This document shows, piece by piece, positions 1,059 to 60,581 of a stretch of 64,000 nucleotides of DNA (position 1 is the first letter of the stretch; every line of letters starts with the position of its first letter). The stretch is from NCBI GenBank assembly GCA_017463065.1, contig JAFTPX010000009.1, positions 13,256 through 77,255 of the forward strand, read 5' to 3'. The notes below the pieces were generated by a model that was not told the origin of the DNA, ran no database searches, and saw only the letters and a program-made list of their open reading frames with translations. The position numbers were made by a program, and so were the translations under genes. This DNA comes from Clostridia bacterium. GTDB lineage: Bacteria > Bacillota > Clostridia > Oscillospirales > CAG-272.

Positions 1059-1414
1059 TTGCTATCTTATCACAGGACAGAAAGAACATCCTCAACGCCG
1101 ACTCGGTGGAGCGGATCTACGTTGATGGAAACACGATCTACGCGAAAACCCTCACCGGGACCGTTACGGAACTCGGCACATACGAGAAGACTGAAAACAT
1201 CGCAAAGGTGATGCTCTACATCGGATTCGCAAGCGCGGCGGCGAAGGACGGCGGCAAGCTCGTCGTCGTTCCCTCCGAGGAAACCGTCGGAAACGAAAAA
1301 GAGATCGCCGCGAAAGCACTTGCGGCCATGTGCAAAGATGGGACGGTCGATGTTAAGATCGCCCCGGAACTCAAAGCCTACCTCGACAAAATGAAAGGCG
1401 GTGAGGGTAAATGA
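1055..1414 (+). CDS. Hypothetical phage protein
   Basis: ATGA start/stop overlap with the upstream gene. GGAGGTG RBS 7 nt upstream. No recognisable motif. Confidence 0.6.
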   Translation: MIAILSQDRKNILNADSVERIYVDGNTIYAKTLTGTVTELGTYEKTENIAKVMLYIGFASAAAKDGGKLVVVPSEETVGNEKEIAAKALAAMCKDGTVDVKIAPELKAYLDKMKGGEGK

Positions 1415-9404: not shown

Positions 9405-9408
9405 GCAC

Positions 9409-10287: not shown

Positions 10288-10288
10288 A

Positions 10289-11302
10289 ATGGAACACGCT
10301 AAAATCATTCACGGCGATAGTCTCGAAGTCTTGAAAACCCTCCCCGACTGTTCGATCGATTGTTGCGTTACCTCTCCTCCTTACTACGGACTGAGAAACT
10401 ACGGGAGCGACGGGCAAATCGGTTTAGAGGAAACCCCGGAGGAGTACATACAGAAACTTGTTGAGATATTCAGAGAGGTACGACGCGTTCTTAAGGACGA
10501 CGGCACGCTATGGGTTAACATCGGCGACAGTTACGCAGGAAGCAGAAAAGGGTTGATGAAAAACGGGACTCATTCCGCAGGACCATCGAAGTCAGACAAA
10601 CACCTCGCGAAAATAACCGGACTGCAACCGTGCAAAACACCGGGGATAAAAAGAAAAGACCTCATCGGTATACCGTGGCTTCTCGCATTCGCTTTACGGC
10701 AAGACGGTTGGTATTTACGGCAGGACATTATTTGGAACAAGCCCAACGCGATGCCGGAAAGCGTCAAGGACCGTTGCACAAAGAGCCACGAATACATTTT
10801 CCTTTTTAGCAAATCGGGACGGTATTTTTTCGACCACGAGGCAATAAAAGAACCTTGCGTAGGATACGACAATAGACCGCCTGCAGGAAGCAACGGGACG
10901 TTGAAACCCAATTCTCGAAAGAGGAAAGGCAATGCAAAGTCATTCCGAGGGGGAGGCGCATATACGTGCGGCAGATCCTTCGAAAACAGCGCAAACGTCG
11001 AAAGACAGACACACGGTAACACCCCCAATGAAAAGGGAACGCGGAACAAGCGGAGCGTTTGGAGCGTAGCTACACAGGGGTACAAAGGAGCGCATTTTGC
11101 AACTTTCCCCGAAAAGCTTGTTGAGCCTTGTATATTGGCAGGATCAAAACCGGGCGGAACGATCATCGACCCGTTTTCGGGGAGTGGGACAACGGGCGCA
11201 GTCGCAATAAGAAACAGCCGCAAATACATCGGGATTGAAATAAATCCCGAATATGTAGAACTATCATCAGACAGACTCGCAAAGGAGGAGGAGAAAAAAT
11301 GA
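10289..11302 (+). CDS. DNA methyltransferase, beta-class N4-C/N6-A (SPPY type)
   Basis: Motif IV SPPY lies near the N-terminus (CCVTSPPYYGLRNY) and motif I FSGSGTTG near the C-terminus. Starts 1 nt after the upstream stop. Confidence 0.85.
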   Translation: MEHAKIIHGDSLEVLKTLPDCSIDCCVTSPPYYGLRNYGSDGQIGLEETPEEYIQKLVEIFREVRRVLKDDGTLWVNIGDSYAGSRKGLMKNGTHSAGPSKSDKHLAKITGLQPCKTPGIKRKDLIGIPWLLAFALRQDGWYLRQDIIWNKPNAMPESVKDRCTKSHEYIFLFSKSGRYFFDHEAIKEPCVGYDNRPPAGSNGTLKPNSRKRKGNAKSFRGGGAYTCGRSFENSANVERQTHGNTPNEKGTRNKRSVWSVATQGYKGAHFATFPEKLVEPCILAGSKPGGTIIDPFSGSGTTGAVAIRNSRKYIGIEINPEYVELSSDRLAKEEEKK

Positions 11303-12003
11303 AACCGATCTACGTTCCGAAAGGCAAAGCCAAAGAATACGGAGATTACGCCCTCAACATCTATACGGGCTGTCCTCACCGATGTTTTTACTGCTTTGCA
11401 CCGAATGTTTTGCGCCGGGAAAAGGAACAGTTTCACGCGGTTGTAAAACCCCGGGAGAACATCGTTGAGGAAACGAGAAAGCAGATCGAGAAAGAGGGCA
11501 TCACGGGGAAGCTCATTCACCTGTGTTTCACATGCGATCCATACCCCCTCGGCCACGACACAACGGTTACGCGAGAGATTATATCCCTGCTCAAAAGCAC
11601 CGGGAACAACGTGCAAATCCTTACCAAAGGCAATGGCCGCCGCGACTTCGATTTGCTCGGACCGGAAGATTGGTACGGCATAACCCTCGACGGCGGGCTC
11701 ACCTTCAAACATGAAGTTGCTTCTTTCCCCGTTACAAGAGCGGAGACGCTACGAGAGGCTCACGCAAGAGGGATAAAAACTTGGGTGTCGTTTGAGCCTG
11801 TTCTTAACGCAGAAACCGTGCTGAAAAACATCAAATACGTCGCAGAATTTGTAGATAAGGTGAAAATCGGCAAACTCAACTACCACCCATCGGATATTGA
11901 TTGGGCGGAATTTGGAAGGAAAGCCGAAAGCCTATGTCAGAAACTCGGACTCGACTACTACATCAAAGAGTCTCTCCGGGCGGAAATGGAGGCGGCAAAA
12001 TGA
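11299..12003 (+). CDS. Radical SAM enzyme 2 (small, SplB/COG1533-like)
   Basis: CPHRCFYC CxxxCxxC motif close to the N-terminus. ATGA overlap with the methyltransferase stop. Confidence 0.75.
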   Translation: MKPIYVPKGKAKEYGDYALNIYTGCPHRCFYCFAPNVLRREKEQFHAVVKPRENIVEETRKQIEKEGITGKLIHLCFTCDPYPLGHDTTVTREIISLLKSTGNNVQILTKGNGRRDFDLLGPEDWYGITLDGGLTFKHEVASFPVTRAETLREAHARGIKTWVSFEPVLNAETVLKNIKYVAEFVDKVKIGKLNYHPSDIDWAEFGRKAESLCQKLGLDYYIKESLRAEMEAAK

Positions 12004-16921: not shown

Positions 16922-17428
16922 ATGTTTTACATAATCATCGGACAAAGCGGATCGGGGAAAACCACATTCGCAAAAACGAATTTCCTTTCCGAGCCGATTG
17001 AGATCATAGAGGACATCATCCCTTACAGCAAATGCTCAAACGGGATCATCGCCCTCGGCAGATACGGAATCGGCAAGCGCACCGAGGGGACGGACACGCT
17101 CTCTTACAGCGCAAAGAACAACATCAAGAAGCTCCTTCGGAAGCTCAAACACGAAAACGTCCTCCTCGAAGGCGACAGGATCAACAACAAAGAGATATTC
17201 GACTTCATAGCCTCCCTCGGGGTTGGCGTTAAACTTTACCTCGTGACCTGCAGTTTGAACACGTCCATGAGACGGTTAAGAGCCGCGGGAAGCACGATTA
17301 CACCGTCGTTCGTGAAAATGACAAAGACAAAATCGAAGAGAATGTTTTTGGAATACGGACAGCGATTCAATGGAGAAATCATAAACACGGAGGAACAGGA
17401 CAATGCAAACAGCCATAATGAAACTTAA
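16922..17428 (+). CDS. P-loop NTPase / small kinase-like protein
   Basis: Walker A GQSGSGKT at residues 7-14. 168 aa, the size of a nucleotide-kinase fold. GGAGG RBS. Confidence 0.65.
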   Translation: MFYIIIGQSGSGKTTFAKTNFLSEPIEIIEDIIPYSKCSNGIIALGRYGIGKRTEGTDTLSYSAKNNIKKLLRKLKHENVLLEGDRINNKEIFDFIASLGVGVKLYLVTCSLNTSMRRLRAAGSTITPSFVKMTKTKSKRMFLEYGQRFNGEIINTEEQDNANSHNET

Positions 17429-18050
17429 AGACATTCGCCCGGCGGCATACAATCCACGTGTAGTATTAAAGCCGGGTGACGCAGAGTGGGAGTCACTCAA
17501 AAACAGCCTCGGGAAATTCGGGCTTGTAGAGCCTTTGGTCTTTAACAAGACAACGGGGAACCTCGTCAGCGGCCACCAACGCCTCAATGTATTGAAAACA
17601 AGCGGCGCAGAGGAGGCAGAGGTCGTTATCATCGAAGTTGACGAGGAGAAAGAAAAGCTCCTTAACATCGCTTTGAACAAGATCGACGGCGATTGGGACT
17701 ACAAAAAGTTGGAAGCCCTTTTCGATGAAATCGACTCCGAAGACATCAAATTCACGGGCTTTACACCGGATGAATTATACAACCTTTTCGACGGCGAAAT
17801 TCCGGAAGACGAGGACGACGACGAAGAGGAAAGTAACGGATCTACCGACAGCGGCGAGAAAGACAGCAAAGAGGCAGACCCGGAGAACCCTCCCGAGCTT
17901 TTGAAGGAGTTTCACATCTTTTTGTCATTCCCGACGAAGGATCTTGCGGAGAAATGGCTGAAAGACAGAGGCGTAGAGGCCGAATACCAAGGAATGGCCC
18001 GCAACATCACGATCAGAATGGAGGGAATCGACTATGGTACAGGAAATTAA
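17403..18050 (+). CDS. ParB N-terminal-domain (ParB/Srx-like) protein, paralogue 1
   Basis: LKDIRPAAYNPR...LVEPLVFNKTTGNLVSGHQRLNVL has the ParB-N GxxR-type core. An acidic DEDDDEEE linker and a small C-terminal domain follow. Confidence 0.75.
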   Translation: MQTAIMKLKDIRPAAYNPRVVLKPGDAEWESLKNSLGKFGLVEPLVFNKTTGNLVSGHQRLNVLKTSGAEEAEVVIIEVDEEKEKLLNIALNKIDGDWDYKKLEALFDEIDSEDIKFTGFTPDELYNLFDGEIPEDEDDDEEESNGSTDSGEKDSKEADPENPPELLKEFHIFLSFPTKDLAEKWLKDRGVEAEYQGMARNITIRMEGIDYGTGN

Positions 18051-18618
18051 GGTTGAACTGCTCAATGCGGCACCGTACAACCCCCGTATTACGTTAGAGC
18101 CGGGAATGCCCGAATGGGAAAAGCTGAAAAACAGCATCGAGATCTTCGGCAACGTAGAGCCGATTGTTTGGAACAAGCGGACCGGCAACGTCGTAGGCGG
18201 CCATCAGAGACTCTCCGTGCTGAAAAGCATGGGTTACGACACCGTACCGTGTTCCGTCGTAGACCTCGACGACAACGACGAAAAGCTGTTGAACATCGCC
18301 CTCAATAAGATCAAGGGCCAATGGGACTACGACAAACTCGAAGACATTTTGAAAGACTTCGACCACGAAGTAGCGACGGCATCCGGCTTCTCTGCGGAGG
18401 AGATCGCCGTCATTCTCGCAAACAACAACGAACTGCTCGACGACGATGATTTCAGCGATTGGGACGACGATCCCGAGGAGATCACGGTAGGCGGCAGTTT
18501 TGTCGTTACACTCGTATTCCAAAGCGAGGGGCTTGCGCAGGAGTGGGCCGAAAACGAAGGATACAAAGACCAAATCCGCGAGGGATCAAGCTCGACAGTC
18601 ATACGAATCGAAGAATAG
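18034..18618 (+). CDS. ParB N-terminal-domain (ParB/Srx-like) protein, paralogue 2
   Basis: NAAPYNPR...VEPIVWNKRTGNVVGGHQRLSVL...LLNIALNKIKGQWDY aligns along its whole length with the upstream gene. Confidence 0.75.
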   Translation: MVQEIKVELLNAAPYNPRITLEPGMPEWEKLKNSIEIFGNVEPIVWNKRTGNVVGGHQRLSVLKSMGYDTVPCSVVDLDDNDEKLLNIALNKIKGQWDYDKLEDILKDFDHEVATASGFSAEEIAVILANNNELLDDDDFSDWDDDPEEITVGGSFVVTLVFQSEGLAQEWAENEGYKDQIREGSSSTVIRIEE

Positions 18619-18629
18619 GGGGCGGCAAA

Positions 18630-19943
18630 ATGGAAAAAGACACATTGAAACAGGATTACCAATCACCCCGTTGGAGCATGGAGATCCCCGACTGTTCAAT
18701 GCCCATGACAATGGACACTTACAGCAAGTGTGCATACAACTGCCTTTACTGCTTTTCGTATTTCCAAAAGAGCCACACGCTCGACGGGTACATAGGCGGC
18801 GGACAGCCTCGGTGCGTCAACCCGCAAAAGGTTATCGACCTCTTTGAAAGCGCGATGAAGAACGACACCGCGGCAGTCACGAAATATTATTTGCAGTTCT
18901 TCCCATACATTCAGAACCGACGCATCATGCAATGGGGAGGCCTCGCAGACGAATTCGACGAATGGGAACGCAGACACGGCGTAACGCTCGAACTGCTCAA
19001 ATATTTCGATAAGATCGACTACCCGCTGTCATTCAGCACAAAAGCCGCATGGTGGACGCAGGACGAAAGATATATGTCATTGTTCCGCAAGCACGCCCAT
19101 AATTGGCACGTCAAGATCTCCATCATCACGGCAGACAAAGAGAAAGCCCGCAAGATCGAAAAAGGCGTACCGTCGCCGGAGGAGCGCATCGCGGCAATCA
19201 AGCGGTTGGCGGACATGGGCATCCACGTTACCCTCCGTTTGAGACCGTTCATCATTGGCGTTTCTTCCGACTTCAAGCAACTAATCAGCATGGCATACAA
19301 AGCCGGAGCGGACAGCGTAACGACGGAATTCTTCTGCATGGAATCAAGAGCGGACGAAAACCTCAAAAAGCGATATGCCGAAATGAGCAAGATCGCAGGG
19401 TTCGACATCCACAAGTATTACATGGAGAACAGCAAGCAACACGGCTACAAGCGGTTGAGCAGAGGCGTAAAAGCACCGATCATTCACGAAATGAGGGACT
19501 ACGTTCACAGCCTCGGTATGCGTTTCCACGTCAGCGACGCTTTTTGCCGGGAATGCAACGACGCTTGCAACTGTTGCGGCGTTCCACCGGAGTGGGGCGT
19601 AAGTCAGCAGGGCAACATCGGACAGGCGATCATCACCGCCCGCGAAAAAGGGCAGGTGCACTTCTCCGACATTTCGGAGGGCATCAACAAGTATTTCTCG
19701 TTCCCGTGGTGCGGCGCGGCAGGGTACAACACAGGTAGCAACAAAGCCCGAGCACTCAACTACGACACGACAATGGCGCAGTTCCTACGGGAGAATTGGA
19801 ACACCCCAAGCAAGGGAACAAGCCCCGCCAAAGGCTACGGAGGAATCCTACGGCCCATCGGAAGGGACAGCAACGGCGACATAGTTTATAAATATGCACT
19901 CAAAGGAGAGGAGGAAAATGGCAGGAAGGAGCAAAAGCATTAA
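18630..19943 (+). CDS. Radical SAM enzyme 3 (437 aa, SplB/COG1533-like)
   Basis: CAYNCLYCF CxxxCxxC motif ~35 aa from the start. ATG 18630 follows GGGGGCGG. The track ORF extends upstream in frame. Confidence 0.75.
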   Translation: MEKDTLKQDYQSPRWSMEIPDCSMPMTMDTYSKCAYNCLYCFSYFQKSHTLDGYIGGGQPRCVNPQKVIDLFESAMKNDTAAVTKYYLQFFPYIQNRRIMQWGGLADEFDEWERRHGVTLELLKYFDKIDYPLSFSTKAAWWTQDERYMSLFRKHAHNWHVKISIITADKEKARKIEKGVPSPEERIAAIKRLADMGIHVTLRLRPFIIGVSSDFKQLISMAYKAGADSVTTEFFCMESRADENLKKRYAEMSKIAGFDIHKYYMENSKQHGYKRLSRGVKAPIIHEMRDYVHSLGMRFHVSDAFCRECNDACNCCGVPPEWGVSQQGNIGQAIITAREKGQVHFSDISEGINKYFSFPWCGAAGYNTGSNKARALNYDTTMAQFLRENWNTPSKGTSPAKGYGGILRPIGRDSNGDIVYKYALKGEEENGRKEQKH

Positions 19944-20418
19944 GTCTTGGGAACGTCAACCCAAGGAAAGTGTGCAAGCCTACGAAGCCTTTTCCCTCTA
20001 CCTCGAATTGGGGTACAAACGCACTGTGCGAAAAGTGGCACAGGACTTGAACAAATCCCTGTCGCTCATAGGCGGATGGAGTAGCACGTGGAATTGGCAA
20101 CAAAGAAGCGCGGACTACGACGCAGAATTGAAGCGGCAGGAGTTTGAGGAAGCCAAAAAAGCGATCAAGAAAATGCAGGAGCGGCACATACAAACGGCCA
20201 TGCTCCTGCAAAAGAAAGCGTTGCAGGCCCTCGAAAAGAAAGACATCGAATCTTTCACCCCGCAAGAGATCCTACGCTTCATAACCGAGGGCGCGAAACT
20301 CGAAAAAGCGACCCGAGAGGAAGCCAACCCCGCAACGGAGAACGCCAACGGCCCGGGCAGTCTTGCCGACACGATCATAGCGGCGTATGAGAAACGGAGA
20401 GGAGGCGGCGGTGAATGA
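19918..20418 (+). CDS. terS: Terminase small subunit (putative)
   Basis: Lies directly upstream of terL with an ATGA overlap. N-terminal HTH-like YEAFSLYLELGYKRTVRKVAQDL. GGAGAGGAGG RBS. Confidence 0.65.
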   Translation: MAGRSKSIKSWERQPKESVQAYEAFSLYLELGYKRTVRKVAQDLNKSLSLIGGWSSTWNWQQRSADYDAELKRQEFEEAKKAIKKMQERHIQTAMLLQKKALQALEKKDIESFTPQEILRFITEGAKLEKATREEANPATENANGPGSLADTIIAAYEKRRGGGGE

Positions 20419-21830
20419 GTTTAAGTCAAGAAGCCATCCTCTATTACGCAGATCACCCCGTCCACTTTGTTGAGGATCTCATAGGGGCAACGCCGGATGA
20501 AAAGCAAGCGCAGATCTTGCAGAGCGTTGCGGACAACCCCATGACCTCAGTACGCTCGGGACACGGTATCGGAAAGAGCACGGTTGAGGCTTGGACGATC
20601 ATTTGGTTTATGGCGACAAGGCCGTTCCCGAAGATCGCTTGCACCGCACCGACACAGCATCAGTTGTTCGATATCCTTTGGGCGGAGATTAGCAAGTGGT
20701 TGAGAAGCGCCCCCGCCCTCGAAAAAGAGTTCGTTTGGACGAAAGAGAAGGTGTACCTCAAAGGCTACCCGGAGGAATGGTTCGCGGTAGCACGAACGGC
20801 CACAAAGCCGGACGCATTGCAGGGCTTCCACGCTGACGACATTCTATACATCATCGACGAAGCAAGCGGCGTTAAGGACAACATCTTTGAACCCGTCCTC
20901 GGTGCGCTGTCAACACCGGGCGCAAGGCTTTTGATGTGCGGAAACCCGACACAGCTTAGCGGATTCTTTTACGAGAGCCACACGAAGAACAAAGCGTCGT
21001 ACAGCGCATTCCACGTAGACGGGAGATCAAGCAAGCGCGTCTCGCAGGATTTCATCAATACGATCATCCGAATGTACGGTGAAGACAGCGACGTATTCCG
21101 TGTTCGTGTTGCAGGGGAGTTTCCAAAGGCGGAGGCGGACGTATTCATTCAGCTTTCCCTCGTGGAGAGCTCTATTATGACAGAGTTTTACCCGCGAAAG
21201 ATACCTGCGTCAATCCGCATCGGTTGCGACGTGGCACGCTTTGGCGACGATAAGACCGTAATAGGCTCGAAGGTGGACGAAAAGGTTACGCTCGAAAAGA
21301 AGCGCAACGGGCAGGACACCATGAAGACGGCGGATGACATCGTTCTCCTTTACTACGATCTGCTGAGGAAATACCCAGACTACAAAGACGATATAACCGT
21401 CTGCGTAGACGACGGCGGCGTGGGCGGCGGCGTAGTGGACCGTTTGCGTCAAATGAAGAAAAACGCGCCGGAGCGGCTTGGGCAGATGAACATCGTGCCG
21501 ATCACCTTCGGACAGCGGATCAAGCATAAGTATTACCACGACTCAACCACGTACATGATGGCAACGGTCAAGGCCTTGCTATCACCATTCGACGAAGACG
21601 GAAACCCGAAACCCGTCGAACTGATACTCCCGAACGACGACGACCTCGTAGCACAGCTTTCGGGCAGAAAGTACGGCTTGACGGACAACAGCAAGATCAA
21701 GGTCGAGAGCAAAAAAGACATGAAGGAACGCGACCTCCCCTCCCCCGACGAGGCGGACTGCGTTTTGCTTTTATGCGTCCCGATCAGACAGAAGAAAAAG
21801 AGCGGAAACGAAAAGAAGCAGGGCAGATAA
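20415..21830 (+). CDS. terL: Terminase large subunit
   Basis: Walker A SGHGIGKST and Walker B ILYIIDEASG. C-terminal nuclease-type acidic residues. 471 aa. Confidence 0.9.
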   Translation: MSLSQEAILYYADHPVHFVEDLIGATPDEKQAQILQSVADNPMTSVRSGHGIGKSTVEAWTIIWFMATRPFPKIACTAPTQHQLFDILWAEISKWLRSAPALEKEFVWTKEKVYLKGYPEEWFAVARTATKPDALQGFHADDILYIIDEASGVKDNIFEPVLGALSTPGARLLMCGNPTQLSGFFYESHTKNKASYSAFHVDGRSSKRVSQDFINTIIRMYGEDSDVFRVRVAGEFPKAEADVFIQLSLVESSIMTEFYPRKIPASIRIGCDVARFGDDKTVIGSKVDEKVTLEKKRNGQDTMKTADDIVLLYYDLLRKYPDYKDDITVCVDDGGVGGGVVDRLRQMKKNAPERLGQMNIVPITFGQRIKHKYYHDSTTYMMATVKALLSPFDEDGNPKPVELILPNDDDLVAQLSGRKYGLTDNSKIKVESKKDMKERDLPSPDEADCVLLLCVPIRQKKKSGNEKKQGR

Positions 21831-25947: not shown

Positions 25948-26871
25948 ATGCCTACCAACAGACAGATTGTGAAAGACACGATCACTACCGCAACCGTAAC
26001 CAACGGCTTGCTGAAACCCGAACAGTCTCGCCGCTTCTTGCAACAGACTTTCGACGCTACCCCTTTGCAGGGCCTCATTCGCCATGAGCTCCGCACTTCC
26101 ACCACCGGCGAGATCGACAAGATCGGTATCGCTTCCCGTATTCTGCGTAAGAAGACCGAAAACGCAGACGACGGCTACCGTGCAAAGCCCAACTACGGCG
26201 CGGTTGAGTACGCTTGTACTCCCGTTCGCTTGCCTTGGGAAATCACTGAGGAAACCCTGCGTCAGAACATCGAGGGTCAGAGCCACGAAGAAACCATCGC
26301 CAACCTCATGACGAGACAGGTTGGTATTGACACCGAAGACCTGTACCTCAACGGCGACGTTGCCACCGCAGACACCGATCCCGATTATGCGTTCCTCTCC
26401 ATCAACGACGGTTGGATCAAGCAGATCAAGAACGGCGGTCACATCTTCGACGCGTTGGCCAAGAACGCCGGCGCAATGACCCTCGACACCTTCTACGGCG
26501 CGTTGAAGGCCATCCCCAACAAGTACAACAACGGCAGACTCCGTTGGCTCATGTCCCCCGCAAGAGCGCAGGAGTGGGAACTGTACTTGATGAACAAGGT
26601 CATCGACGCAGGCGGCGCTGTTCCCGACAACGTCTACACCTCCCCCGCCCGCATTCCTACCGTCGAAGTGCCTAACATGCCCGACGACTGCATCCTGCTC
26701 ACCGACCCCAAGAACCTCATCGCGGTCAACTCTTATAACATGGTTATCAGAAAGACCACCGAGGGCAAAGAGGCGGTCATGCAGGACAAGCGTTTCTACG
26801 TCGTGCATTTCGACTTCGACGCGATCATCGAAGAGCTCGACGCAACCGCGGCAATTACCGGCCTTGCATAA
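25948..26871 (+). CDS. Major capsid protein
   Basis: 307 aa, after the protease/scaffold gene. Strong AGGAGGA RBS and a hairpin directly downstream. Confidence 0.8.
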   Translation: MPTNRQIVKDTITTATVTNGLLKPEQSRRFLQQTFDATPLQGLIRHELRTSTTGEIDKIGIASRILRKKTENADDGYRAKPNYGAVEYACTPVRLPWEITEETLRQNIEGQSHEETIANLMTRQVGIDTEDLYLNGDVATADTDPDYAFLSINDGWIKQIKNGGHIFDALAKNAGAMTLDTFYGALKAIPNKYNNGRLRWLMSPARAQEWELYLMNKVIDAGGAVPDNVYTSPARIPTVEVPNMPDDCILLTDPKNLIAVNSYNMVIRKTTEGKEAVMQDKRFYVVHFDFDAIIEELDATAAITGLA

Positions 26872-26876
26872 GAAAA

Positions 26877-26895
26877 AAGGGGCTTCTCGCCCCTT
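26877..26895 (+). terminator. Hairpin after the capsid gene (possible partial terminator)
   Basis: aaggggc-ttctc-gcccctt forms a 7-bp stem. The downstream T tract is poor (tcccgtctt). Confidence 0.4.
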
Positions 26896-26930
26896 TCCCG
26901 TCTTGCAAACCAACAAGGAGGTGAAAGGAT

Positions 26931-27635
26931 TTGTATAAGATCCTAATTTGGAAAGACCATTATACCAACATGGAGAACACCTATGTTGCAAGGCAAAACA
27001 ACAACGGGACGATCACCCTCACCCCTGCGGGTCAAGTCATTCAGCAAGGCACGAGCATGAGCGCGGAGAACTTCAACAACATGGAGTGCGGAATCCTCGA
27101 TGCCGATCTTGCGAACCGGCTCCTCCTTTTACTCACGAGGAACAACGCCACCGAAATCGCCAAGATCAAAACGTCCACGGGCCAAGCAGTCGGCGTTGTA
27201 ACGTACATGAACGGGGCGCAAACCGGGTCAATCGAAGCGGCAGAACCCCTTATGATCGAAGCCGGTAACGGCATCGGCGCGACGGTCCAAAACGGCAGAG
27301 TTATCCTTGGCGTTGATGTAACCACCGCCCCCGAGTCGATGAAAGGCGGTTCGAATTTCATTGCTGACACCGTCACTTTGGAAACCGCCAAATGGACGCA
27401 AACAACCGCAGACGGCTTGATGTACGAAATGCCTTTCGAGGGCGTTTTGGCAGACCCCACGAAGTGCCTTGTTTTTTGCGCCGTCGTTCCCAATGATGCC
27501 GCAATGGAGGCAGAGTGGGCGCGGTGCGATATCCGTTGTGTTACGCAAGGGGACGGCTACATTAGGTTCAGATCACGGAGCGGAGAGACACCCACCATCG
27601 ACATCAACGTTTCCGTAGCCGTATTTACGAAGTAG
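26931..27635 (+). CDS. Fibre-like protein; its N-terminal domain is paralogous to the product of 45283..45552
   Basis: TTG start after AGGAGGTG. In YKILIWKDH...QQGTSMSAENFNNMECGILDADLANRLLLL, 44 of 67 residues are identical to the start of the tail-fibre-adjacent protein. Confidence 0.5.
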   Translation: MYKILIWKDHYTNMENTYVARQNNNGTITLTPAGQVIQQGTSMSAENFNNMECGILDADLANRLLLLLTRNNATEIAKIKTSTGQAVGVVTYMNGAQTGSIEAAEPLMIEAGNGIGATVQNGRVILGVDVTTAPESMKGGSNFIADTVTLETAKWTQTTADGLMYEMPFEGVLADPTKCLVFCAVVPNDAAMEAEWARCDIRCVTQGDGYIRFRSRSGETPTIDINVSVAVFTK

Positions 27636-27647
27636 GAGGGAAAGCGT

Positions 27648-28007
27648 ATGCCAATCATCAATATCAACCCTACGAAGAAAGATGATTCCACCGCCGCCAC
27701 CGTTTACGTGGTCGGGAATCCCGTAGAATTCGTCCTGTCGAAGGACCTTTGGAACGGGACGATCTACACGATCACGACAACCGAATACGGCGAGGTGGGC
27801 GCTCTGCAACTCGGAATCCCACCTACATCAAGCATGGCCAACGCCAACCGCCTCATTCGGTGCGCTTTGACGATCCCGCAGATCACAAACACGAGGATCG
27901 ACACGGACGGCGACGACGTAAAAGAGACCAACCAAGCTACGATCACCATTTCCGCAGTAACAGCCCCCGACGAAGACGTGACCGTGGCGATTTGGGGGCT
28001 GATCTAA
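27648..28007 (+). CDS. Hypothetical structural-module protein
   Basis: AGGAGGG RBS. 119 aa. No motif recognised. Confidence 0.5.
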   Translation: MPIININPTKKDDSTAATVYVVGNPVEFVLSKDLWNGTIYTITTTEYGEVGALQLGIPPTSSMANANRLIRCALTIPQITNTRIDTDGDDVKETNQATITISAVTAPDEDVTVAIWGLI

Positions 28008-28684
28008 TGAATCAGTTGACCCACCTTGCAGTCATCGCGGACGGGAACGGCCGTTGGGCGGAAAAGCGGGGGCTTACCCGTTCAGAGGGCCACGAACACG
28101 GTCTGCATAAGATCGACGATCTGCTTCATTGGTGCGTGGATCTCGGCATCCCTTTTCTTTCCGTTTACGTTTTCTCTACCGAGAATTGGAACAGACCGAA
28201 AGAGGAGGTTGACGCCTTGGGAGAGCTTGCGGACAAATATTTCGACCGTCACCGGGAATTCAAGGAAAGCAATGTGCGTGTACTCATTTCCGGGTGCGCG
28301 GACAATTTGAAGCAAACAAGCCTCGATAAAATCGCACATCTGCAAGAGGAAACAAAGGACTGCACCGGGCTGACGTTGAACCTCTGCGCCAACTACGGAG
28401 GGCGCAGGGAGATTGTGGACGCCATCGCCAAAGGCGCAAGGACGGAGGAGGAGATCACAGCCGCTCTCTATCACCGATTACCGCCGCCGGACCTCATTCT
28501 ACGGACGGGCGGGCATCAACGGCTCTCCAACTTTCTCTTGTGGCAATCAGCTTATGCGGAGCTCCACTTCACCCACACGCTTTTCCCGGATCTTTCCTTC
28601 GGGGAAGTCAAACACATCAAAAGCGCATTCGAGCGCGAAACCCGAAAATTTGGAGGTGTGATCATTGACAAGCGGACAGTATAG
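28007..28684 (+). CDS. uppS: Undecaprenyl-diphosphate synthase homologue (cis-prenyltransferase), 225 aa
   Basis: All family hallmarks are present: VIADGNGRWA, FSTENWNRP, ANYGGRREI, LRTGGHQRLSNFLLWQSAYAELHF and RKFGG. The ATG shares its A with the upstream TAA. Confidence 0.9.
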   Translation: MNQLTHLAVIADGNGRWAEKRGLTRSEGHEHGLHKIDDLLHWCVDLGIPFLSVYVFSTENWNRPKEEVDALGELADKYFDRHREFKESNVRVLISGCADNLKQTSLDKIAHLQEETKDCTGLTLNLCANYGGRREIVDAIAKGARTEEEITAALYHRLPPPDLILRTGGHQRLSNFLLWQSAYAELHFTHTLFPDLSFGEVKHIKSAFERETRKFGGVIIDKRTV

Positions 28685-29564
28685 TTATTTGCTTCTCAAA
28701 CATATGCAAAAGTACGTTTCTTGTTCCGAGCCGTGGGTACGCGTATATCTCTACAACTTCTACGGGAGCATTTTCAACGACCCCTCCGTGGTGGTTGACG
28801 AGGCAAGCTATTTGCGGTTCAAAGAGCTCATGGACGCAGAAATGGAATATTGCGCTCAAAAGGGATTGCACAGCATGGAAGACGTTTACTACGACGAAAA
28901 CTTCGGCGAGTCCTACACCCTTTTGGAAGATGCATTTGGGACGCTTGGGATCACTATGGAGATCACGAAAAACTCGGACGGCCACCCGCAAACGCTCATA
29001 TTCACCTTGCCTTCCGGGGAGCAAAAGATTCTCGAGTGTTACAACATGTGCTTTAACGGCTGTACGCCGTATGTGCGGGCGCGATTGGGCGTGACAGACA
29101 CCTACCTCGAACAGATCCGCTCCTATTACCAACTCGAAGAAATCGAGAGGTGCGACTTGGAGGAAGACGGTTGCAACGTGGCGGGGAACGGCACCTGGTG
29201 GACGCATGACGAAGCGACAGGAACGCTTGAAATCACAGGCGAAGGATCTCTCGTAGAATCCATCGTGTGGGGCTACGTCGGGATCGAATTGGAAACGGTC
29301 TCGACGATGATCGTCGGCGCCGGGGTGAAGGTTTTCGACGACTACTCTCTGAGCTTTGAAAATGTACCTACGGTGAACATCGTCACGCTTCACGGAGAAG
29401 CTGACGAACTGACGCTTGGCGAGACGGTTTTCGGATCCTTCAAATCAGAAAGAACCGTCATTCTCTACACGGATAACACGGCTTTGATGGATTACTTGGC
29501 GGCAAACTACGCGGGGACAATCGACTACTTCGAGATCCACAGCCTTGCGGAATGGGAGGGATAA
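28665..29564 (+). CDS. BspA-type leucine-rich-repeat-like protein
   Basis: The C-terminal GTWWTHDEATGTLEITGEGSL...MIVGAGVKVFDDYSLSFENV...LGETVFGSF resembles LRR_5/BspA repeats. TTG start after GGAGGTG. Overlaps the uppS end by 20 nt. Confidence 0.5.
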   Translation: MTSGQYSYLLLKHMQKYVSCSEPWVRVYLYNFYGSIFNDPSVVVDEASYLRFKELMDAEMEYCAQKGLHSMEDVYYDENFGESYTLLEDAFGTLGITMEITKNSDGHPQTLIFTLPSGEQKILECYNMCFNGCTPYVRARLGVTDTYLEQIRSYYQLEEIERCDLEEDGCNVAGNGTWWTHDEATGTLEITGEGSLVESIVWGYVGIELETVSTMIVGAGVKVFDDYSLSFENVPTVNIVTLHGEADELTLGETVFGSFKSERTVILYTDNTALMDYLAANYAGTIDYFEIHSLAEWEG

Positions 29565-29565
29565 C

Positions 29566-30132
29566 ATGAAGGTATACGAGATCGGCTTCTCGCAGGTAGC
29601 CGACGCAATGAAAGAGATCACGCAGACCGGCGGGGAGGGGCTGATCGTTGAGATCGCCGCAGACCCTTGGCTTGCGACGGGAAGGATCGACGGCACCTAC
29701 TCGGAAGAGGCGCGGCAAGATCTTGGCATTCCCCTTTTCCACGCAAAGCACTACGGAGGCACCTGCGTCGTATTTCCCGGAGACCTATCTCTTTGCGAAA
29801 TGCGCTTGACACAGAGCGACTTCGGCAAACGTGCAATCCACGCCGTGAAAGAGTTTTTGAAAAGCCTCGGGCTTCACGTTGCGCTTGACGGAAACGACCT
29901 TATGCTTTACTCCCCGGAAGAAAACGAAAAATTCAAAGTTGCGTCCTACGGTTCGGGGAGCTTCGGCGGCGGGCATTACCAAACGGTTGTGCACGTTTCC
30001 ATTGGCATGGACGAAGAACTCGTAAAGCGCCTATGCACAAAGAATCAAAAAAAGAAACCGAGAGGGCTTGACCGTTACGGCGTGACCGCGCAGGCGGTTT
30101 ATGAAGTTATAAAACCCCTTATAACAGTTTGA
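29566..30132 (+). CDS. Lipoate/biotin-protein-ligase-fold (LplA-like) protein, divergent
   Basis: HAKHYGGTCVVFPGDLSL aligns with the LplA RRSSGGGAVFHDLGN. DGNDLML....KFKVASYGS aligns with GRNDLVV...RKVSGSA, so the lysine is retained. HYQTVVHVSIGMD aligns with HHGTLLLNADL. Confidence 0.5.
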   Translation: MKVYEIGFSQVADAMKEITQTGGEGLIVEIAADPWLATGRIDGTYSEEARQDLGIPLFHAKHYGGTCVVFPGDLSLCEMRLTQSDFGKRAIHAVKEFLKSLGLHVALDGNDLMLYSPEENEKFKVASYGSGSFGGGHYQTVVHVSIGMDEELVKRLCTKNQKKKPRGLDRYGVTAQAVYEVIKPLITV

Positions 30133-30143
30133 GAGGCTAAAAA

Positions 30144-30449
30144 ATGAAACTTCGGCTTATTTTACTCTACGTGTTCAACATCATCGACACGATCACCACG
30201 CTGTACTTGACGCAGATCATCGGCTTGGAGGAGGCGAACCCCGTGTGCCGTTTCCTTTTGTCCGTTGGTCCCGTTCTTTTCGTGGTAGTAAAGCTCGCAG
30301 TCGTCACCTTCTGTTGTTGGGATCTTTGGCGGCTCCGGGACGAAAAGCTCGCCCAAATTGCAACGTGGATCCCCTTCACCGCATACGGGCTTTTGGTGGC
30401 GTACCACGGCTTTATTTTTTACATTTTATTTCGTTTGAATTTGATTTAA
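30144..30449 (+). CDS. Small integral membrane protein (3-4 TM, DUF5658-like EANP motif)
   Basis: Hydrophobic throughout. LEEANPVCRF motif. Confidence 0.55.
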   Translation: MKLRLILLYVFNIIDTITTLYLTQIIGLEEANPVCRFLLSVGPVLFVVVKLAVVTFCCWDLWRLRDEKLAQIATWIPFTAYGLLVAYHGFIFYILFRLNLI

Positions 30450-30465
30450 GAAAGAAGGTGAGAAA

Positions 30466-31911
30466 ATGGAAATTCAATATTTGAGCATTAGAGACGCGGC
30501 AGGCGAAATCGTCTTCACAAAGATCCCCATTAGGCAACCCGGACAGGAGGGCGAATTTGTAAAAGTAAGAGACGCCTACGGGGATATCGTCGAAATCGAA
30601 GCGTGTATGTGCGGGCCCCACCTGCACACGATCAGCGACATCAACGCTTTGCAAGAAACGCTCGACAAAAAGCCAGATGCTTACCACGCCGTTCTGCAAC
30701 CCTTTGATTGGGTATTCGACGGCACTCTCGAAGGGAAAGAAACTATTCCTATCGGTGGAACTCCGGAATTAATGGCCTACCTTGTGAAAATCACAGATCT
30801 CGTCCCGACGATAGAGGAGTTTAAGGCAGGAACTGCCACAATAAGACCTTTAGGCACCGATGAAACTATGACTTTCGCCATTTCCGAGAATGTGATTAAC
30901 GTTATTCATGGAGGGTACTATTTTGGAATTGTTCATGTCGACCAAATCAACTATATTGCGCTCGTCACGAACAATACAAACGCCGGGTACCTTTCAGGCA
31001 GTTCTCCCATTGATGGGAAGGATGTTTCTACGGGCGTATGGGCTACTGTTTTTTGTCTCAAAGACGACAGCGAGAAAATAATCTTCGGGCCTAAAGAGAT
31101 ATATTTCCCTTCCATTGCAAAAGCCCCGGCAAAGAAACTCGACCCCGCTCTTGTGGACGCCGAGTGGATGCCTCGGAGGGAAAAGGGCGCCGGCCCGCTG
31201 ACCGTCTCCTTCGACGGGGATTTGAGCAGGCATCCGCACACCTGGATAAGTGGATTTGATCAAATCGTTTGGATTAAACTTTCCGATCTTATACCTACGA
31301 ATGAGCAAATTAACGCAGGAAAGGGAACCTATACCACTATCGACGGTTCTGTCCACGAATTTACAGATGCCGGACGTTTTAACGGTTGGGAGAATGAGGC
31401 CTTGGGCTCCCCTGGGTTATATTTTGCCTTTGACGCCTACCATGAAGAGCTATCCCCTTGGAAATTCACCTTCCAAATACCCGACGTAGATGGGGCAGGC
31501 ACGCCCGTGAAAATTCCGGAAGAGTTCCTGCCCGACTACGTTGCGGATCTTCCGGCTGAGGTTGAAATGGCCAAAGACGAGGCATACCAAAACAAGATCG
31601 TTCGTTTTTTATTTAATCCAACCAATAATACCGGTTCATACTATTTACAAAATTCATTCTCCTCAACTATTGTTACCGCCGCCGAATTGGAAGCACTGGG
31701 TTATGTAAGAAAAAACGACACCATGGACTACCGCATGGTTAGAGGCCCCTTAATTATATCCGTCGGTGGGGGGCCGGAGTTCCTCACCGCTGTTGCGGTT
31801 AAACAAATGGATGACCTCGCGGGCTCCCCGTTCTGCGTAACTGTTATCAACAGCGAGGGGGAACCGATCAAGCTCTACACCGCCGAATACACACTCGAAG
31901 CAACTGAATAA
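30466..31911 (+). CDS. Fibre-like structural protein
   Basis: HLHTISDINALQETLDKK matches the H-x-H..D(I/V)xGLQxxLxxK motif common in phage fibres. 481 aa. Confidence 0.45.
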   Translation: MEIQYLSIRDAAGEIVFTKIPIRQPGQEGEFVKVRDAYGDIVEIEACMCGPHLHTISDINALQETLDKKPDAYHAVLQPFDWVFDGTLEGKETIPIGGTPELMAYLVKITDLVPTIEEFKAGTATIRPLGTDETMTFAISENVINVIHGGYYFGIVHVDQINYIALVTNNTNAGYLSGSSPIDGKDVSTGVWATVFCLKDDSEKIIFGPKEIYFPSIAKAPAKKLDPALVDAEWMPRREKGAGPLTVSFDGDLSRHPHTWISGFDQIVWIKLSDLIPTNEQINAGKGTYTTIDGSVHEFTDAGRFNGWENEALGSPGLYFAFDAYHEELSPWKFTFQIPDVDGAGTPVKIPEEFLPDYVADLPAEVEMAKDEAYQNKIVRFLFNPTNNTGSYYLQNSFSSTIVTAAELEALGYVRKNDTMDYRMVRGPLIISVGGGPEFLTAVAVKQMDDLAGSPFCVTVINSEGEPIKLYTAEYTLEATE

Positions 31912-32008
31912 AACCATAAACGTGCATTTTTGGTTACAAGATGCACGTTAGCCCCCGAAAAATCAAAATTAAAACCAAATACAAAACCAAAAGAAGGAGG
32001 ATTCCAAA

Positions 32009-32389
32009 ATGTTTAAGGTCAAACTTATCAAGGGTCTTTCGTACAACGGCGCGGTCCGAGTCACGAAAGCAAACCCCTACGCAGAGGTCGAGACAAAGGA
32101 AGCCGCAGACGCGCTCGTAGCTACCGGCTACTTTGAACTCGTCGAAGTCGTAGAGCCCGCCGCACCCGCCGGAGAGCCCGCAGAAGGCAATAAGAACGAC
32201 GAAACCGCCGCACCCGAGGCAGAAGCCGTAGTGCCCGAAGCACCCAAAGCAGAGGAACAGGCGGCTTCCAAGCCGGCCAAGAAGGCAAAGGGCAAAAAGG
32301 CAGAGACCGCCGCAAAGGTCGATGAAGCCGCTCCCGCCGCTGAACCCGAACCCGCCGAAGGCGAAGCTGACTACGGCGAGGGTGAGTAA
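32009..32389 (+). CDS. Hypothetical head-associated protein with an Ala/Pro/Glu-rich tail
   Basis: AGGAGG RBS. Globular ~45-aa N-terminus followed by a low-complexity AEP-rich region. Confidence 0.5.
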   Translation: MFKVKLIKGLSYNGAVRVTKANPYAEVETKEAADALVATGYFELVEVVEPAAPAGEPAEGNKNDETAAPEAEAVVPEAPKAEEQAASKPAKKAKGKKAETAAKVDEAAPAAEPEPAEGEADYGEGE

Positions 32390-32391
32390 CC

Positions 32392-32778
32392 ATGCCGGCG
32401 AGACCTTGGGTAAGGCCCGCAGACGTTCAAGCCTACTCCGAGTATAAGTCCGTCAAGGAACGAAGCGAAGCAAAGCTCGTGGTGGATATCCTGCGGGCAG
32501 AGAACTACGTTATTTCGTACACCAACAACGATTTCAAGGATCTTGAAGAGATCCCGGAAAGCGTCAAGACCGCGATCATCATCGTAGCGGAGGCTTACGG
32601 GTACAACGCTTGCCTCGCCGCAAGGGAAATGAAGTCGGAGCAGTTCGACGATTATTCCTATACGGCGGCAGACGCGCATCCGATTGACATCGGATCTCTT
32701 GACATCGCTTCCCTGCTCGACGAGTACGCGAAGCCGGAGGCGCGGAACGGCGTTACCCTGCGCATGAGAAAACTTTGA
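32392..32778 (+). CDS. Head-tail connector (gp6-like DNA-packaging/connector protein)
   Basis: The N-terminal pattern VRPADVQAYSEY...AKLVVDILRAENYVISYTNNDF is typical of gp6-like connectors. Position is as expected. Confidence 0.6.
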   Translation: MPARPWVRPADVQAYSEYKSVKERSEAKLVVDILRAENYVISYTNNDFKDLEEIPESVKTAIIIVAEAYGYNACLAAREMKSEQFDDYSYTAADAHPIDIGSLDIASLLDEYAKPEARNGVTLRMRKL

Positions 32779-45282: not shown

Positions 45283-45552
45283 GTGTACAACATCCTCATT
45301 TGGAAGGACCATTGCGTAGAGCCGGGCAACACTTACATTGCCAAGAACAACGCAGATGGAACTGTTACCCTTACCCCCACGGGGAAGATCTTGCAACAGG
45401 GAACGAACCAAAGCGCGACCAATTTCAACAATATGGAGGCAGGCATCCTCGACGCACATCTCGCAAATTCCCTGCTCCTCCTTGCGTTAAGAGATCTTTC
45501 CTCCCGGCTTGAAGCCGCAGAGAAAGCAATCGCAACGCTCCAAAGCACATAG
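45283..45552 (+). CDS. Short fibre-anchor-like protein (paralogue of the N-terminus of 26931..27635) with a coiled-coil tail
   Basis: GTG start after AAGGGGGAA. YNILIWKDH...QQGTNQSATNFNNMEAGILDAHLANSLLLL. Confidence 0.5.
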   Translation: MYNILIWKDHCVEPGNTYIAKNNADGTVTLTPTGKILQQGTNQSATNFNNMEAGILDAHLANSLLLLALRDLSSRLEAAEKAIATLQST

Positions 45553-45574
45553 TAAACGATAAAGGAGAATGAAC

Positions 45575-46636
45575 ATGAGCAAATTTAACCTTACGAGCCT
45601 TGCGCTCGAATCTGCATTTTCCCCCAACACCCTCATTTACGACGATCTAGGGCTTCCGTCGGTTATGGTGTACGTCCCCAAATTCAAGATCAGCGACGTA
45701 ATCCCCGGCGGGAGCGACAGCACTCACCCGGCGTTCATCGTTGACGGTGTGGAAAGAGACGGCATCTATATTTCAAAGTATCAGAACGTAGTCCTCAACG
45801 GCAGAGCTTATTCCATTCCCTGCGAAGATCCTGCCGTTAGCGTAAGTTTCACGGCGGCGGTTGATTATTGCGCGGCAAAAGGCGAGGGGTGGCACATCAT
45901 GACCGCCGCAGAATGGGCGGCAATCGCTCTTTGGTGCAAAAAGAACGGGTTCCTGCCCTACGGAAACAACAACTACGGCAAGGACACAAGGGAAACCGAT
46001 TACAAGGCGATCCCGACAGCAAAAGATGCCGACGGCAGGACGCTTCGCGTAGCAACAGGCACAGGACCTCTTACGTGGAGCCACAACAATATGCTCGACG
46101 GCATTTACGACCTCAACGGTAACGTATGGGAGTGGAACGGCGGTATGAGGCTTGTTTACGGCGAACTCCAGATCCTCGAAAACAACAACGCCGCCAACAG
46201 CGATGCCTCGCAGGCGGCCTCTTCCGCGCAATGGAAGGCAATCGACGGCACCACAGGAGAGCTTATCACCCCGGATGGAAACGGCAAGACGAAGAACAGC
46301 CTCAAACTCGACCTTTTGAACTCCGTTTGGACGTGGATCACCGGGACTGTCACAGCAACCGCGACGTTCACTTCGAGATTTAAGGAAGTCACCACCGACG
46401 GAACCGTCAGCGACGCGGCAAAGGCGATCCTGCAGGCTCTCGCCATGCTCCCCCATGACACCGGCGATTACGGAGACGACGACTTCTACATCGACCCCAC
46501 GAAAGCGGACTTTATCCTCTATTCCGGAGGGGCACAAAGCACCGGCGTTAGCGCCGGAGTTTTCCGCAAGGCTTTTTCCGCATTGAGAGCTTTTGCGGCA
46601 TCGACAGTCGGTTTCCGCGCCGCTTACTACGAGTAA
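45575..46636 (+). CDS. Tail fibre / receptor-binding protein with an FGE-sulfatase (SUMF1, C-type-lectin-fold) domain
   Basis: GEGWHIMTAAEWAAIALWC and LNGNVWEWNGG match the FGE-domain signatures GWRLPTEAEWE and GNVWEW. ATG 45575 preferred because of its spacing to AAAGGAG. Confidence 0.65.
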   Translation: MSKFNLTSLALESAFSPNTLIYDDLGLPSVMVYVPKFKISDVIPGGSDSTHPAFIVDGVERDGIYISKYQNVVLNGRAYSIPCEDPAVSVSFTAAVDYCAAKGEGWHIMTAAEWAAIALWCKKNGFLPYGNNNYGKDTRETDYKAIPTAKDADGRTLRVATGTGPLTWSHNNMLDGIYDLNGNVWEWNGGMRLVYGELQILENNNAANSDASQAASSAQWKAIDGTTGELITPDGNGKTKNSLKLDLLNSVWTWITGTVTATATFTSRFKEVTTDGTVSDAAKAILQALAMLPHDTGDYGDDDFYIDPTKADFILYSGGAQSTGVSAGVFRKAFSALRAFAASTVGFRAAYYE

Positions 46637-56929: not shown

Positions 56930-56961
56930 AAAAAGCCAAAAACCGGAAATTTGACCGATAA

Positions 56962-57384: not shown

Positions 57385-57397
57385 ACGCACAAAAGAG

Positions 57398-57427
57398 AGA
57401 GCAGGTGGGTTCCCCATCTGCTCTTTT
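57398..57427 (+). terminator. Intrinsic terminator after the catalase fragment
   Basis: A ~12-bp stem (57398-57409 / 57413-57424), followed by tttt. Confidence 0.6.
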
Positions 57428-57471
57428 GACGCTTTCGCAACTGTTATGAGCTGTAAAGCACCAAAAAGCCC

Positions 57472-57500
57472 TTGACTATCCCGCGGGAAACGGTTATAAT
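57472..57500 (+). promoter_or_regulatory. Sigma-A promoter (TTGACT - 17 nt - TATAAT) for the YD-repeat gene
   Basis: ttgact at 57472-57477 and tataat at 57495-57500. Confidence 0.7.
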
Positions 57501-60568: not shown

Positions 60569-60581
60569 AGCCGCTCCCCCA

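Follow-up and report, generated by a model that had tools for sequence, protein, structure and literature searches.

A UppS-like cis-prenyltransferase of a phage-only lineage, encoded in an inserted block of an Oscillospiraceae prophage

We describe here a gene for a UppS-like cis-prenyl diphosphate synthase, called cisPT below (28007-28684, + strand), found within an Oscillospiraceae prophage in a stretch of 64,000 nucleotides from a Clostridia bacterium genome (GCA_017463065.1, contig JAFTPX010000009.1, positions 13,256 to 77,255 of the forward strand; hereafter the window). Its 225-aa product belongs to a clade found only in phages, retains the catalytic residues of undecaprenyl-diphosphate synthase (UPPS; gene uppS) and is under purifying selection, and the gene lies in a block of accessory genes inserted among the late structural genes. 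Based on the sequence comparisons, we consider it probable that cisPT is an active UppS-type synthase of a phage lineage, which would form the core of a mobile cassette and serve a carrier-lipid-dependent envelope chemistry late in infection.

Family, active site and origin of cisPT

The first-pass annotation, made from the sequence alone, reported five hallmark motifs of cis-prenyltransferases in this product, and all of them (DGNGRWA, FSTENWNRP, ANYGGR, RTGGHQRLSNFLLWQSAYAE and RKFGG) are present in the translation. The protein belongs to the cis-isoprenyl diphosphate synthase family (PF01255/TIGR00055), with a match far above chance: the Pfam profile PF01255 is covered from position 1 to 219 of 219 with 231.8 bits (cut-off 27), and TIGR00055 (uppS) is matched with 217.8 bits (cut-off 109.55). 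Every lineage-specific PRK-type equivalog of NCBIfam has a cut-off above the score of cisPT, e.g. 325 for a score of 220. Bacterial UppS/IspU (Escherichia coli, 1JP3; Campylobacter jejuni, 3UGS) share with cisPT the fold family and the catalytic residues, and identity to the solved UPPS structures is around 40%. The closest of these is the Campylobacter enzyme (E = 4e-48), which is similarly compact. Short-chain plant and non-canonical cis-prenyltransferases in the Protein Data Bank (PDB) score nearly level with UPPS against cisPT, so the product is not fixed by similarity.

Residues were checked in an alignment of cisPT with E. coli UppS and 120 family members (E. coli numbering is used throughout), and 40 sampled members of the phage clade, clade A, were compared with 81 cellular UppS. 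cisPT has kept D26, N28, R30, R39, H43, F70, S71, E73, N74, W75, R77, E81, D190, R194, R200, S202, E213 and G244. The same catalytic and substrate residues are kept across the 40 clade members, the sole exception being E73, replaced by Asp in 6. The catalytic Asp of the DGNGRWA loop and the allylic-diphosphate binders (D26, N28, R30, R39, H43, N74 and R77) are identical in all 40, and R194, R200, S202, E213 and G244, the glycine of the RxG motif, are also retained in 40 of 40. The Arg of this motif (R242) is replaced by Lys in 34 and by Asn in 6 members. According to Grabinska et al. (10.1101/139675), the glycine of the motif is essential, Asn occurs naturally at the Arg position in active enzymes, and E. 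coli UPPS with R242H still supports growth, so the change seems tolerable. Compared with E. coli UppS, 14 N-terminal residues, one residue of helix alpha-3 and around 13 residues of the 155-185 region are missing. At the level of sequence, the description of cisPT as catalytically intact, already made at first pass, is justified, since all catalytic and substrate-binding residues of the E. coli enzyme are retained. A reading of the chain length from the sequence was dropped as unreliable.

In a search of 5.8 billion proteins, at least 120 metagenomic clusters matched cisPT with 67-88% identity, all of 218 to 232 aa. Nearly all are metagenome proteins with no name, and one carries the name 'isoprenyl diphosphate synthase [Caudoviricetes sp.]'. 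The closest cellular UppS are 46-48% identical, among at least 598 relatives found in 185,579 GTDB species genomes (one genome per species, in a scan limited by the peptide patterns used), and the Oscillospiraceae copies are 41-42% identical. In a neighbour-joining tree of 126 sequences, cisPT and all its close relatives form one clade (bootstrap 100%), with a second viral clade, clade B, as its sister (bootstrap 91.5%), and the median identity is 72% within clade A and 41% to cellular UppS. In comparisons of cisPT with the closest relatives, which share 88% and 86% aa identity with it, the proportion of synonymous differences (pS) is near saturation at 0.69-0.94 and that of nonsynonymous differences (pN) is 0.09-0.10, with dN/dS around 0.05. 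The clade is under strong purifying selection. In the same genome pairs, pN of C2, the gene that follows cisPT, is around 0.4. The identical cisPT protein is encoded by nine contigs, which come from several samples; the arrangement is therefore stable in nature.

None of the partner genes of cisPT occurs within 10 kb of uppS at 80 cellular loci. The cellular uppS loci share another conserved set of neighbours (in the order pyrH-frr-uppS-cdsA-dxr in an annotated example), and the cellular relatives most similar to cisPT (L029, L030 and L033) have a common neighbour set that differs from the phage cassette. Unlike bacterial UppS, cisPT is found outside the frr-uppS-cdsA context, groups in a phage-only clade and is coupled to two phage proteins. 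The phylogeny against cellular UppS, proposed at first pass as a way to tell recent capture from an old phage lineage, decides for the latter: cisPT represents a long-standing phage lineage that split from cellular UppS long ago, and the gene was acquired from other phages along with its cassette. A housekeeping UppS orthologue was ruled out by the identity of at most 48% to any cellular copy found in the pattern-limited GTDB scan, the separate clade, the phage neighbours and the sub-cut-off PRK scores, and a recent host capture by the same scan, the tree and the dN/dS value.

The gene had been taken as an unusual one for a phage, which agrees with its scarcity in known phages. No PHROG family covers cisPT, and the proteins of the inserted block gave only N-terminal or function-unassigned matches to PHROGs. 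Among 50,697 deposited phage records, the only genuine-looking homologues are gp102 of Streptomyces phage Gilgamesh, which lies beside two membrane proteins, and a 135-aa fragment in Flavobacterium phage 6H. Both belong to the same enzyme family and are found within bona fide phage genomes, but they share 31-38% identity with cisPT, have no C1/C2/DUF5658 cassette (see below) and no function in their records. A 24-kb megablast search against deposited phages gave no match. The H16 record was inspected and consists of bacterial frr-uppS-cdsA DNA labelled as phage, in a pyrH-frr-uppS-cdsA-dxr context, and the remaining short or very large unannotated 'phage' records appear likewise to be bacterial DNA, so apparent counts of phage uppS are inflated. 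The record CAKLQH020000012.1, deposited as phage, shows the bacterial chromosomal neighbourhood pyrH-frr-uppS-cdsA-dxr-rseP, and AFYI01000001.1 (a 289-kb whole-genome shotgun contig of Salmonella enterica) and OR844988.1 (an unannotated record of 386 kb) are presumed to be host DNA. In full-text searches of the literature, no paper on phage-encoded UppS was found, and apparent matches to 'uppS' as an auxiliary metabolic gene (AMG) corresponded to 'Uppsala' or were absent from the text. Benler et al. (2021, PMC8008677) reported an IspD-like gene in the 'Flandersviridae' gut phages and called its pathway 'not known to be manipulated by phages'. It is likewise an isoprenoid-pathway-type enzyme in a gut phage, but it is a nucleotidyltransferase of another step, found in phages of Bacteroides hosts and within a replication module.

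The cassette, its sister and the 5.1-kb insertion

The gene belongs to a cassette with the order fibre-like C1 domain, cisPT, C2, often C5 (similar to the lipoate-protein ligase LplA) and a DUF5658 membrane protein, and this order recurs in contigs of IMG/VR and of metagenomes that show no alignment to the window in their other genes. Across these cassettes, identity to the window is 67-88% for cisPT and only 26-47% for C1, C2 and C5.

C1 (27648-28007, + strand) is a conserved domain of around 100 aa. Here it corresponds to a whole open reading frame (ORF) of 119 aa. Other phages carry it at the C-terminal end of a larger protein (255-397 aa) whose gene directly precedes cisPT, with tblastn matches of 33-44% identity in this position in nearly all clade-A loci. 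No match to C1 was found in PDB profiles, Pfam or PHROG. On the other side of cisPT, C2 (28665-29564, + strand) encodes a protein of 299 aa with a helical N-terminal part and an LRR_5-like C-terminal part, and a C2 of around 290 aa comes directly after cisPT in nearly every clade-A locus examined. The AlphaFold2 (AF2) model of C2, with a mean predicted confidence (pLDDT) of 78, has weak best fold matches to BspA-like and phage leucine-rich-repeat proteins (probability 0.82-0.85) and no significant neighbour in PDB or BFVD, and a profile search of PDB gave no match. Among the homologues, few polar residues are invariant, so C2 looks like a binding or structural protein. It was rejected as an enzyme or NgBR-like subunit, given that the model has no cis-prenyltransferase fold and just the weak leucine-rich-repeat matches.

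C5 (29566-30132, + strand) is an optional member, a truncated protein of 188 aa with similarity to the LplA/LipB catalytic domain. The ATG at 29566 is its likely start, because homologues align from residue 8. A profile built from 70 homologues matches lipoate-protein ligases in PDB (8CRI, E = 3.4e-9) and superseded a weak LysM-domain match obtained with a 5-sequence profile; 41 of the 70 family members match PF21948 (LplA-B_cat). D118 and K131 are invariant, and the Lys aligns with the region of the LplA active-site lysine. The family has at least 209 clusters at 50% identity, nearly all of around 185 aa, as a stand-alone catalytic domain. A single-sequence structure prediction of C5 was unusable (pLDDT 39). 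The small membrane protein that follows (30144-30449, + strand) matches DUF5658 (PF18902, 57.5 bits), with an E-x-N-P motif and about three predicted transmembrane segments as read from the sequence, and its gene is also found downstream of the cassette in L001-L012, L025 and L122-L125. No literature on DUF5658 was found. PADLOC-DB defence models gave no match at E <= 0.01 for the eight block proteins compared, nor for the family 4 glycosyltransferase (GT4) and the trans-prenyltransferase of the relatives.

C1, cisPT and C2 are translationally coupled, as read from their gene overlaps. In agreement with the first-pass description, the ATG of cisPT shares its A with the TAA stop of C1 (TAATG at 28005-28009) and the next gene overlaps its end, with C2 starting at TTG 28665, 20 nt before the cisPT stop. 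This TTG is taken as the true start of C2 because residues T2, S3, Q5, Y6 and L10, which precede the first internal Met, are invariant among homologues and a GGAGG (28652-28656) lies 8 nt upstream. Stop/start overlaps (TAATG, ATGA or 20 nt) are conserved across clade A for the three genes. The Shine-Dalgarno sequence of cisPT is inside the last codons of C1, 'IWGL' (tgggggc; window 27990-28009), and that of C2 is inside the catalytic 'FGG' (K-x-G-G) codons of cisPT (ttt gga ggt; window 28647-28667), where one FGG stretch doubles as active-site codons and as Shine-Dalgarno sequence. Embedded ribosome-binding sites are at the same positions in L001, L109, L112, L113 and others.

A profile scan of 2.9 million IMG/VR contigs recovered 27 loci, 14 from clade A, 11 from clade B and 2 distant ones that are giant-virus-like. 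The clade-B enzymes are 42-46% identical to cisPT of the window, and some members alter the allylic-binding residues R39 and H43 (K/I and Y). Their cassette, cassette B, contains a 434-aa protein, a GT4, a trans-prenyltransferase similar to synthases of geranylgeranyl diphosphate (GGPP) and farnesyl diphosphate (FPP), and the clade-B cisPT (L126-L135 and L138, e.g. L131 4795-8648; L025 11792-13438). Each of the 11 loci has the GT4 either immediately upstream of the clade-B cisPT or one gene away. Eight of them have a 256-aa trans-prenyl synthase between the two genes; GGPP and FPP synthases are its closest solved relatives, and its end overlaps the start of the clade-B cisPT. Where a phage encodes both the primer synthase and the elongating enzyme, the lipid product itself seems to be under selection. 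Nucleotide identity is 80-91% between the sequence that follows cassette B in L131 and those that follow cassette A in L001, L002 and L007, which indicates that the two cassettes are alternative cargo ahead of the same lysis module. There are also mixed loci: in L025 and L026, cassette A is followed by a B cassette with its GT4 reduced to an 80-aa remnant, and L110 has cassette A plus a trans-prenyl synthase.

The location of cisPT in a late structural operon, proposed at first pass, holds, since cisPT has the major capsid gene on one side and the head-tail adaptor genes on the other, and can be refined to an inserted block of seven genes that includes the cassette (26863-32008). In blastn against L139, the closest relative, the window is collinear at around 77% nucleotide identity up to 26862 and again from 32009, so the 5.1 kb between these points are an insertion. 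Among 80 IMG/VR contigs with a related capsid (52-84% identity), 74 also hold the adaptor. The gap between both genes is 240-1260 bp in all 74, and w234, C1, cisPT, C2, C5, DUF5658 and w481 are absent from all of them. With viral hallmark genes on both flanks and this absence from 74 of 74 capsid-related phages, cisPT qualifies by position and distribution as an accessory gene ('moron' or AMG).

On the left, the ancestral flank is the major capsid gene (25948-26871, + strand; phrog_1623, E = 3.8e-83). After its stop, a hairpin read from the sequence, GGGGC-TTCTC-GCCCC followed by TTT (26879-26893, + strand), marks where the insertion has its left edge; the consensus terminator scan did not list this hairpin, and any role as a terminator would be putative. 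The first inserted gene, w234 (26931-27635, + strand), encodes a fibre-like protein that matches phrog_9010 on its N-terminus only. Its N-terminal 55 aa (26931-27095) are 62% identical to a short ORF in the tail-fibre region (45283-45447, + strand), which suggests a shared anchor with interchangeable distal domains. Just downstream of this ORF, at 45569-46636, there is a tail protein with an FGE-sulfatase domain. The C-terminal part of w234 is similar to a protein encoded ahead of the cassette in L111. The last inserted gene, w481 (30466-31911, + strand), has a weak phage-tail-repeat match below the cut-off (PF12789, 23.5 bits). No PDB match was found for w234 or w481, and no PHROG match for w481. 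The right edge has another hairpin read from the sequence, AACGTGCAT-13 nt-ATGCACGTT (31919-31949, + strand), followed by the ancestral right flank with w126, a small head-region protein, and the first head-tail adaptor (32009-32778, + strand; phrog_4931). A homologue of w126 directly follows the capsid gene in relatives. The w126 protein (32009-32389, + strand) has a conserved N-terminal domain of around 64 aa and a low-complexity tail rich in Ala, Glu, Pro and Lys.

PHROG and Pfam matches identify terminase (20415-21830), portal, Mu-F-like head protein, protease and capsid genes upstream of the insertion, and adaptors (from 32392), sheath, tube and tape measure downstream. Promoter and terminator scans of the operon gave results at chance level, with no promoter-like site above chance within the block. 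As there is also no intergenic room, read-through from the late operon is the simplest explanation for the expression of the block. In other phages, tail, fibre or tail-spike genes come before the cassette, and holin and endolysin or integrase genes often come after it; compared with these, its position in the head cluster is exceptional here.

Possible role in infection

We suggest that cisPT would condense isopentenyl diphosphate (IPP) onto a short allylic primer, FPP or GGPP, giving a Z-polyprenyl diphosphate. A mobile cassette of accessory genes would circulate among gut Clostridia phages, normally at the junction of tail-fibre and lysis genes, with cisPT as its enzymatic core, which evolves slowly. 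In the Oscillospiraceae prophage, the cassette and two fibre-like genes would have arrived together as the 5.1-kb insertion after the major capsid gene, being read through with the late structural genes. A carrier-type polyprenyl diphosphate would then be made late in infection and supply an envelope or glycan process that the phage directs, that depends on the carrier lipid and that is linked to the adsorption module. C2 and DUF5658 may act with cisPT, for example by targeting the enzyme or handling the product in the membrane. The roles proposed at first pass, a boost or diversion of the carrier pool, a block to superinfection through surface glycans and a prenyl chain of another length, would be candidates on which these sequence data bear indirectly.

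Several points weigh against this explanation. By Pfam annotation, no known family of glycosyltransferases, phosphatases or flippases is represented in the cassette of the window, so that the link to glycans comes from the sister clade B only. C1 and C2 look structural or binding proteins rather than pathway enzymes, and linkage within the cassette could reflect the shared ancestry of a recombination unit rather than a shared function. If expression is restricted to the late phase, it comes when surface polymers are already on display and would be a poor means of changing them. Clade A also differs from bacterial UppS at residues that are near-invariant in the 81 cellular sequences (M25A, E198 to F/H/Y, W221F and R242K/N) and has remodelled tunnel-lining positions (A47L, A69V/C, F89A and L93F). 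In all, five or six tunnel-lining positions depart from the cellular consensus, with the tunnel-floor residue L137 kept, and these replacements could mean another primer, product length or acceptor.

These replacements are the starting point of the foremost alternative, in which a neofunctionalised enzyme makes a product unlike the undecaprenyl diphosphate (C55-PP) of the host, through another length or a GGPP primer, or transfers the prenyl chain to an acceptor other than IPP. Together with C2, the LplA-like protein and DUF5658, it could build a phage-specific lipid or a lipidated protein, such as a modified fibre component. The tight translational coupling to C1 and C2, the co-travel with a small membrane protein and a homologue of lysine-modifying enzymes of the acyl-AMP type, and the near-level scores of short-chain and non-canonical enzymes, which leave the product unfixed, are all consistent with it. 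All IPP-binding residues (R194, R200, S202, E213 and the RxG glycine) are kept, however, as expected for an ordinary head-to-tail condensation of IPP; L137 is retained, the LplA-like gene is optional, and we know of no precedent for protein prenylation by this enzyme family. We regard such a change of function as a serious candidate, although an unlikely one.

A bolder proposal, which we make tentatively, is that gut Clostridia phages run an isoprenoid-lipid pathway of their own, with a primer synthase, one or two cisPTs and partners (C2 and DUF5658 in cassette A, GT4 in cassette B), giving a phage-specific polyprenyl lipid or lipid-linked glycan and not simply more host C55-P (undecaprenyl phosphate, Und-P). 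It might travel with receptor-binding genes because the product remodels or mimics the wall structure that the fibres recognise, or modifies the fibres. The two cisPTs and the primer synthase of L025 recall, as an analogy only, the mycobacterial enzymes Rv1086 and Rv2361c and the DHDDS/NgBR complex. The mycobacterial route has two enzymes, the Z-FPP synthase Rv1086 and the decaprenyl-diphosphate synthase Rv2361c. As DHDDS with NgBR, cisPT has a partner, C2, with which it is obligatorily co-expressed, but this partner has no cis-prenyltransferase fold and cisPT keeps its own RxG glycine, so no partner tail is needed.

Accessory genes that act on polyprenyl-phosphate-linked surface glycans are known in other phages, such as gtrABC in P22/SfV-type phages and the prophage gene tarP of Staphylococcus aureus, typically beside tail-spike, lysis or integrase genes. 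These systems use the carrier lipid of the host and encode transferases, not a lipid synthase. Cassette B resembles them in pairing cisPT with a GT4 in a comparable position. Unlike gtr, the cassette of the window has no recognisable glycosyltransferase or GtrA flippase and lies in a late operon with no promoter of its own detected. Gtr-type serotype conversion was rejected for the window, as no glycosyltransferase or GtrA domain was found in the block or elsewhere in its Pfam annotation.

If instead cisPT were a plain AMG, an extra UppS would keep the Und-P pool and wall maintenance going after host expression declines, preventing premature lysis and raising burst size, and its neighbours would be unrelated cargo. 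The intact catalytic machinery fits this, as do other metabolic helpers of the phage (the S-adenosylmethionine synthetase and the LplA-like enzyme) and the primer synthase added by some relatives, expected if polyprenyl-diphosphate flux is selected. One report describes Und-P as a limiting shared pool in bacteria (PMC12826051). A pool booster would have no need for a distinct, ancient lineage with altered near-invariant residues, though, and neither the invariant coupling to C1 and C2 across unrelated phages nor the placement in adsorption modules would be explained; the absence from 74 of 74 close relatives also indicates a gene that is dispensable for this phage type. We consider the plain AMG improbable.

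Much weaker is a use of the fold without catalysis, as a structural or ligand-binding part of fibres (recognising, for instance, polyprenyl-linked wall precursors), or a product that poisons the lipid II cycle to time lysis. The gene is embedded among fibre-like genes, often just upstream of holin/endolysin, and coupled to putative structural proteins, but the near-complete conservation of catalytic residues over saturated synonymous divergence is not expected of a protein that only binds, these phages already have holin-endolysin modules, and a virion-borne enzyme would be without substrate, IPP and FPP being cytosolic; we give this very little credit. Finally, a passive recent capture of host uppS with no phage role is hardly credible: of the two signs named for it at first pass, absence from related phages was found (74 of 74 with a related capsid), but near-identity to a host copy is false (at most 48% to any cellular UppS found, around 41-42% to Oscillospiraceae copies), and the monophyletic phage-only clade, the dN/dS of around 0.05 and the same cassette in many unrelated phages contradict it.

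Peptidoglycan, teichoic acids and capsules all depend on polyprenyl phosphate as their limiting carrier. The new elements here are a phage-only cisPT clade under strong selection, coupled to orphan partners, and a sister clade associated with a glycosyltransferase and a primer synthase. Together, clades A and B suggest that some gut phages control the supply of carrier lipid or make their own lipid during infection. The orphan families C1, C2 and DUF5658 gain a biochemical anchor, natural compact variants of UppS become available for work on chain-length control and inhibitors, and there is a handle on how phages of the poorly studied Oscillospiraceae deal with the host envelope.

Other genes of the window

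Near the start of the window, a 1281-aa protein (1411-5256, + strand) has a metallophosphatase domain and SMC_N/AAA_23, and looks like an SbcCD-type fusion. The region around 8352-12003 (+ strand) starts with the phage S-adenosylmethionine synthetase, with all three MetK domains, and a 292-aa protein with no assigned function; they are followed by an N6/N4 DNA methyltransferase (10289-11302) and a radical-SAM protein (11299-12003), and these genes may together form a cluster for DNA modification or anti-restriction. Two proteins with a ParB_N domain and, after them, a radical-SAM-like protein of around 437-494 aa lie shortly ahead of the terminase genes (17403-19943, + strand).

No integrase was seen in the Pfam annotations obtained for the window. 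The right end of the prophage is located at 54660-64000, with DUF4942 (54660-56396), a fragment similar to Mn-catalase (56989-57384) and an RHS-repeat protein (57536-58720). From 58930 on there are host genes on the minus strand, with a GC content of 0.59 and clusters at 90% identity named Oscillospiraceae/Ruminococcaceae.

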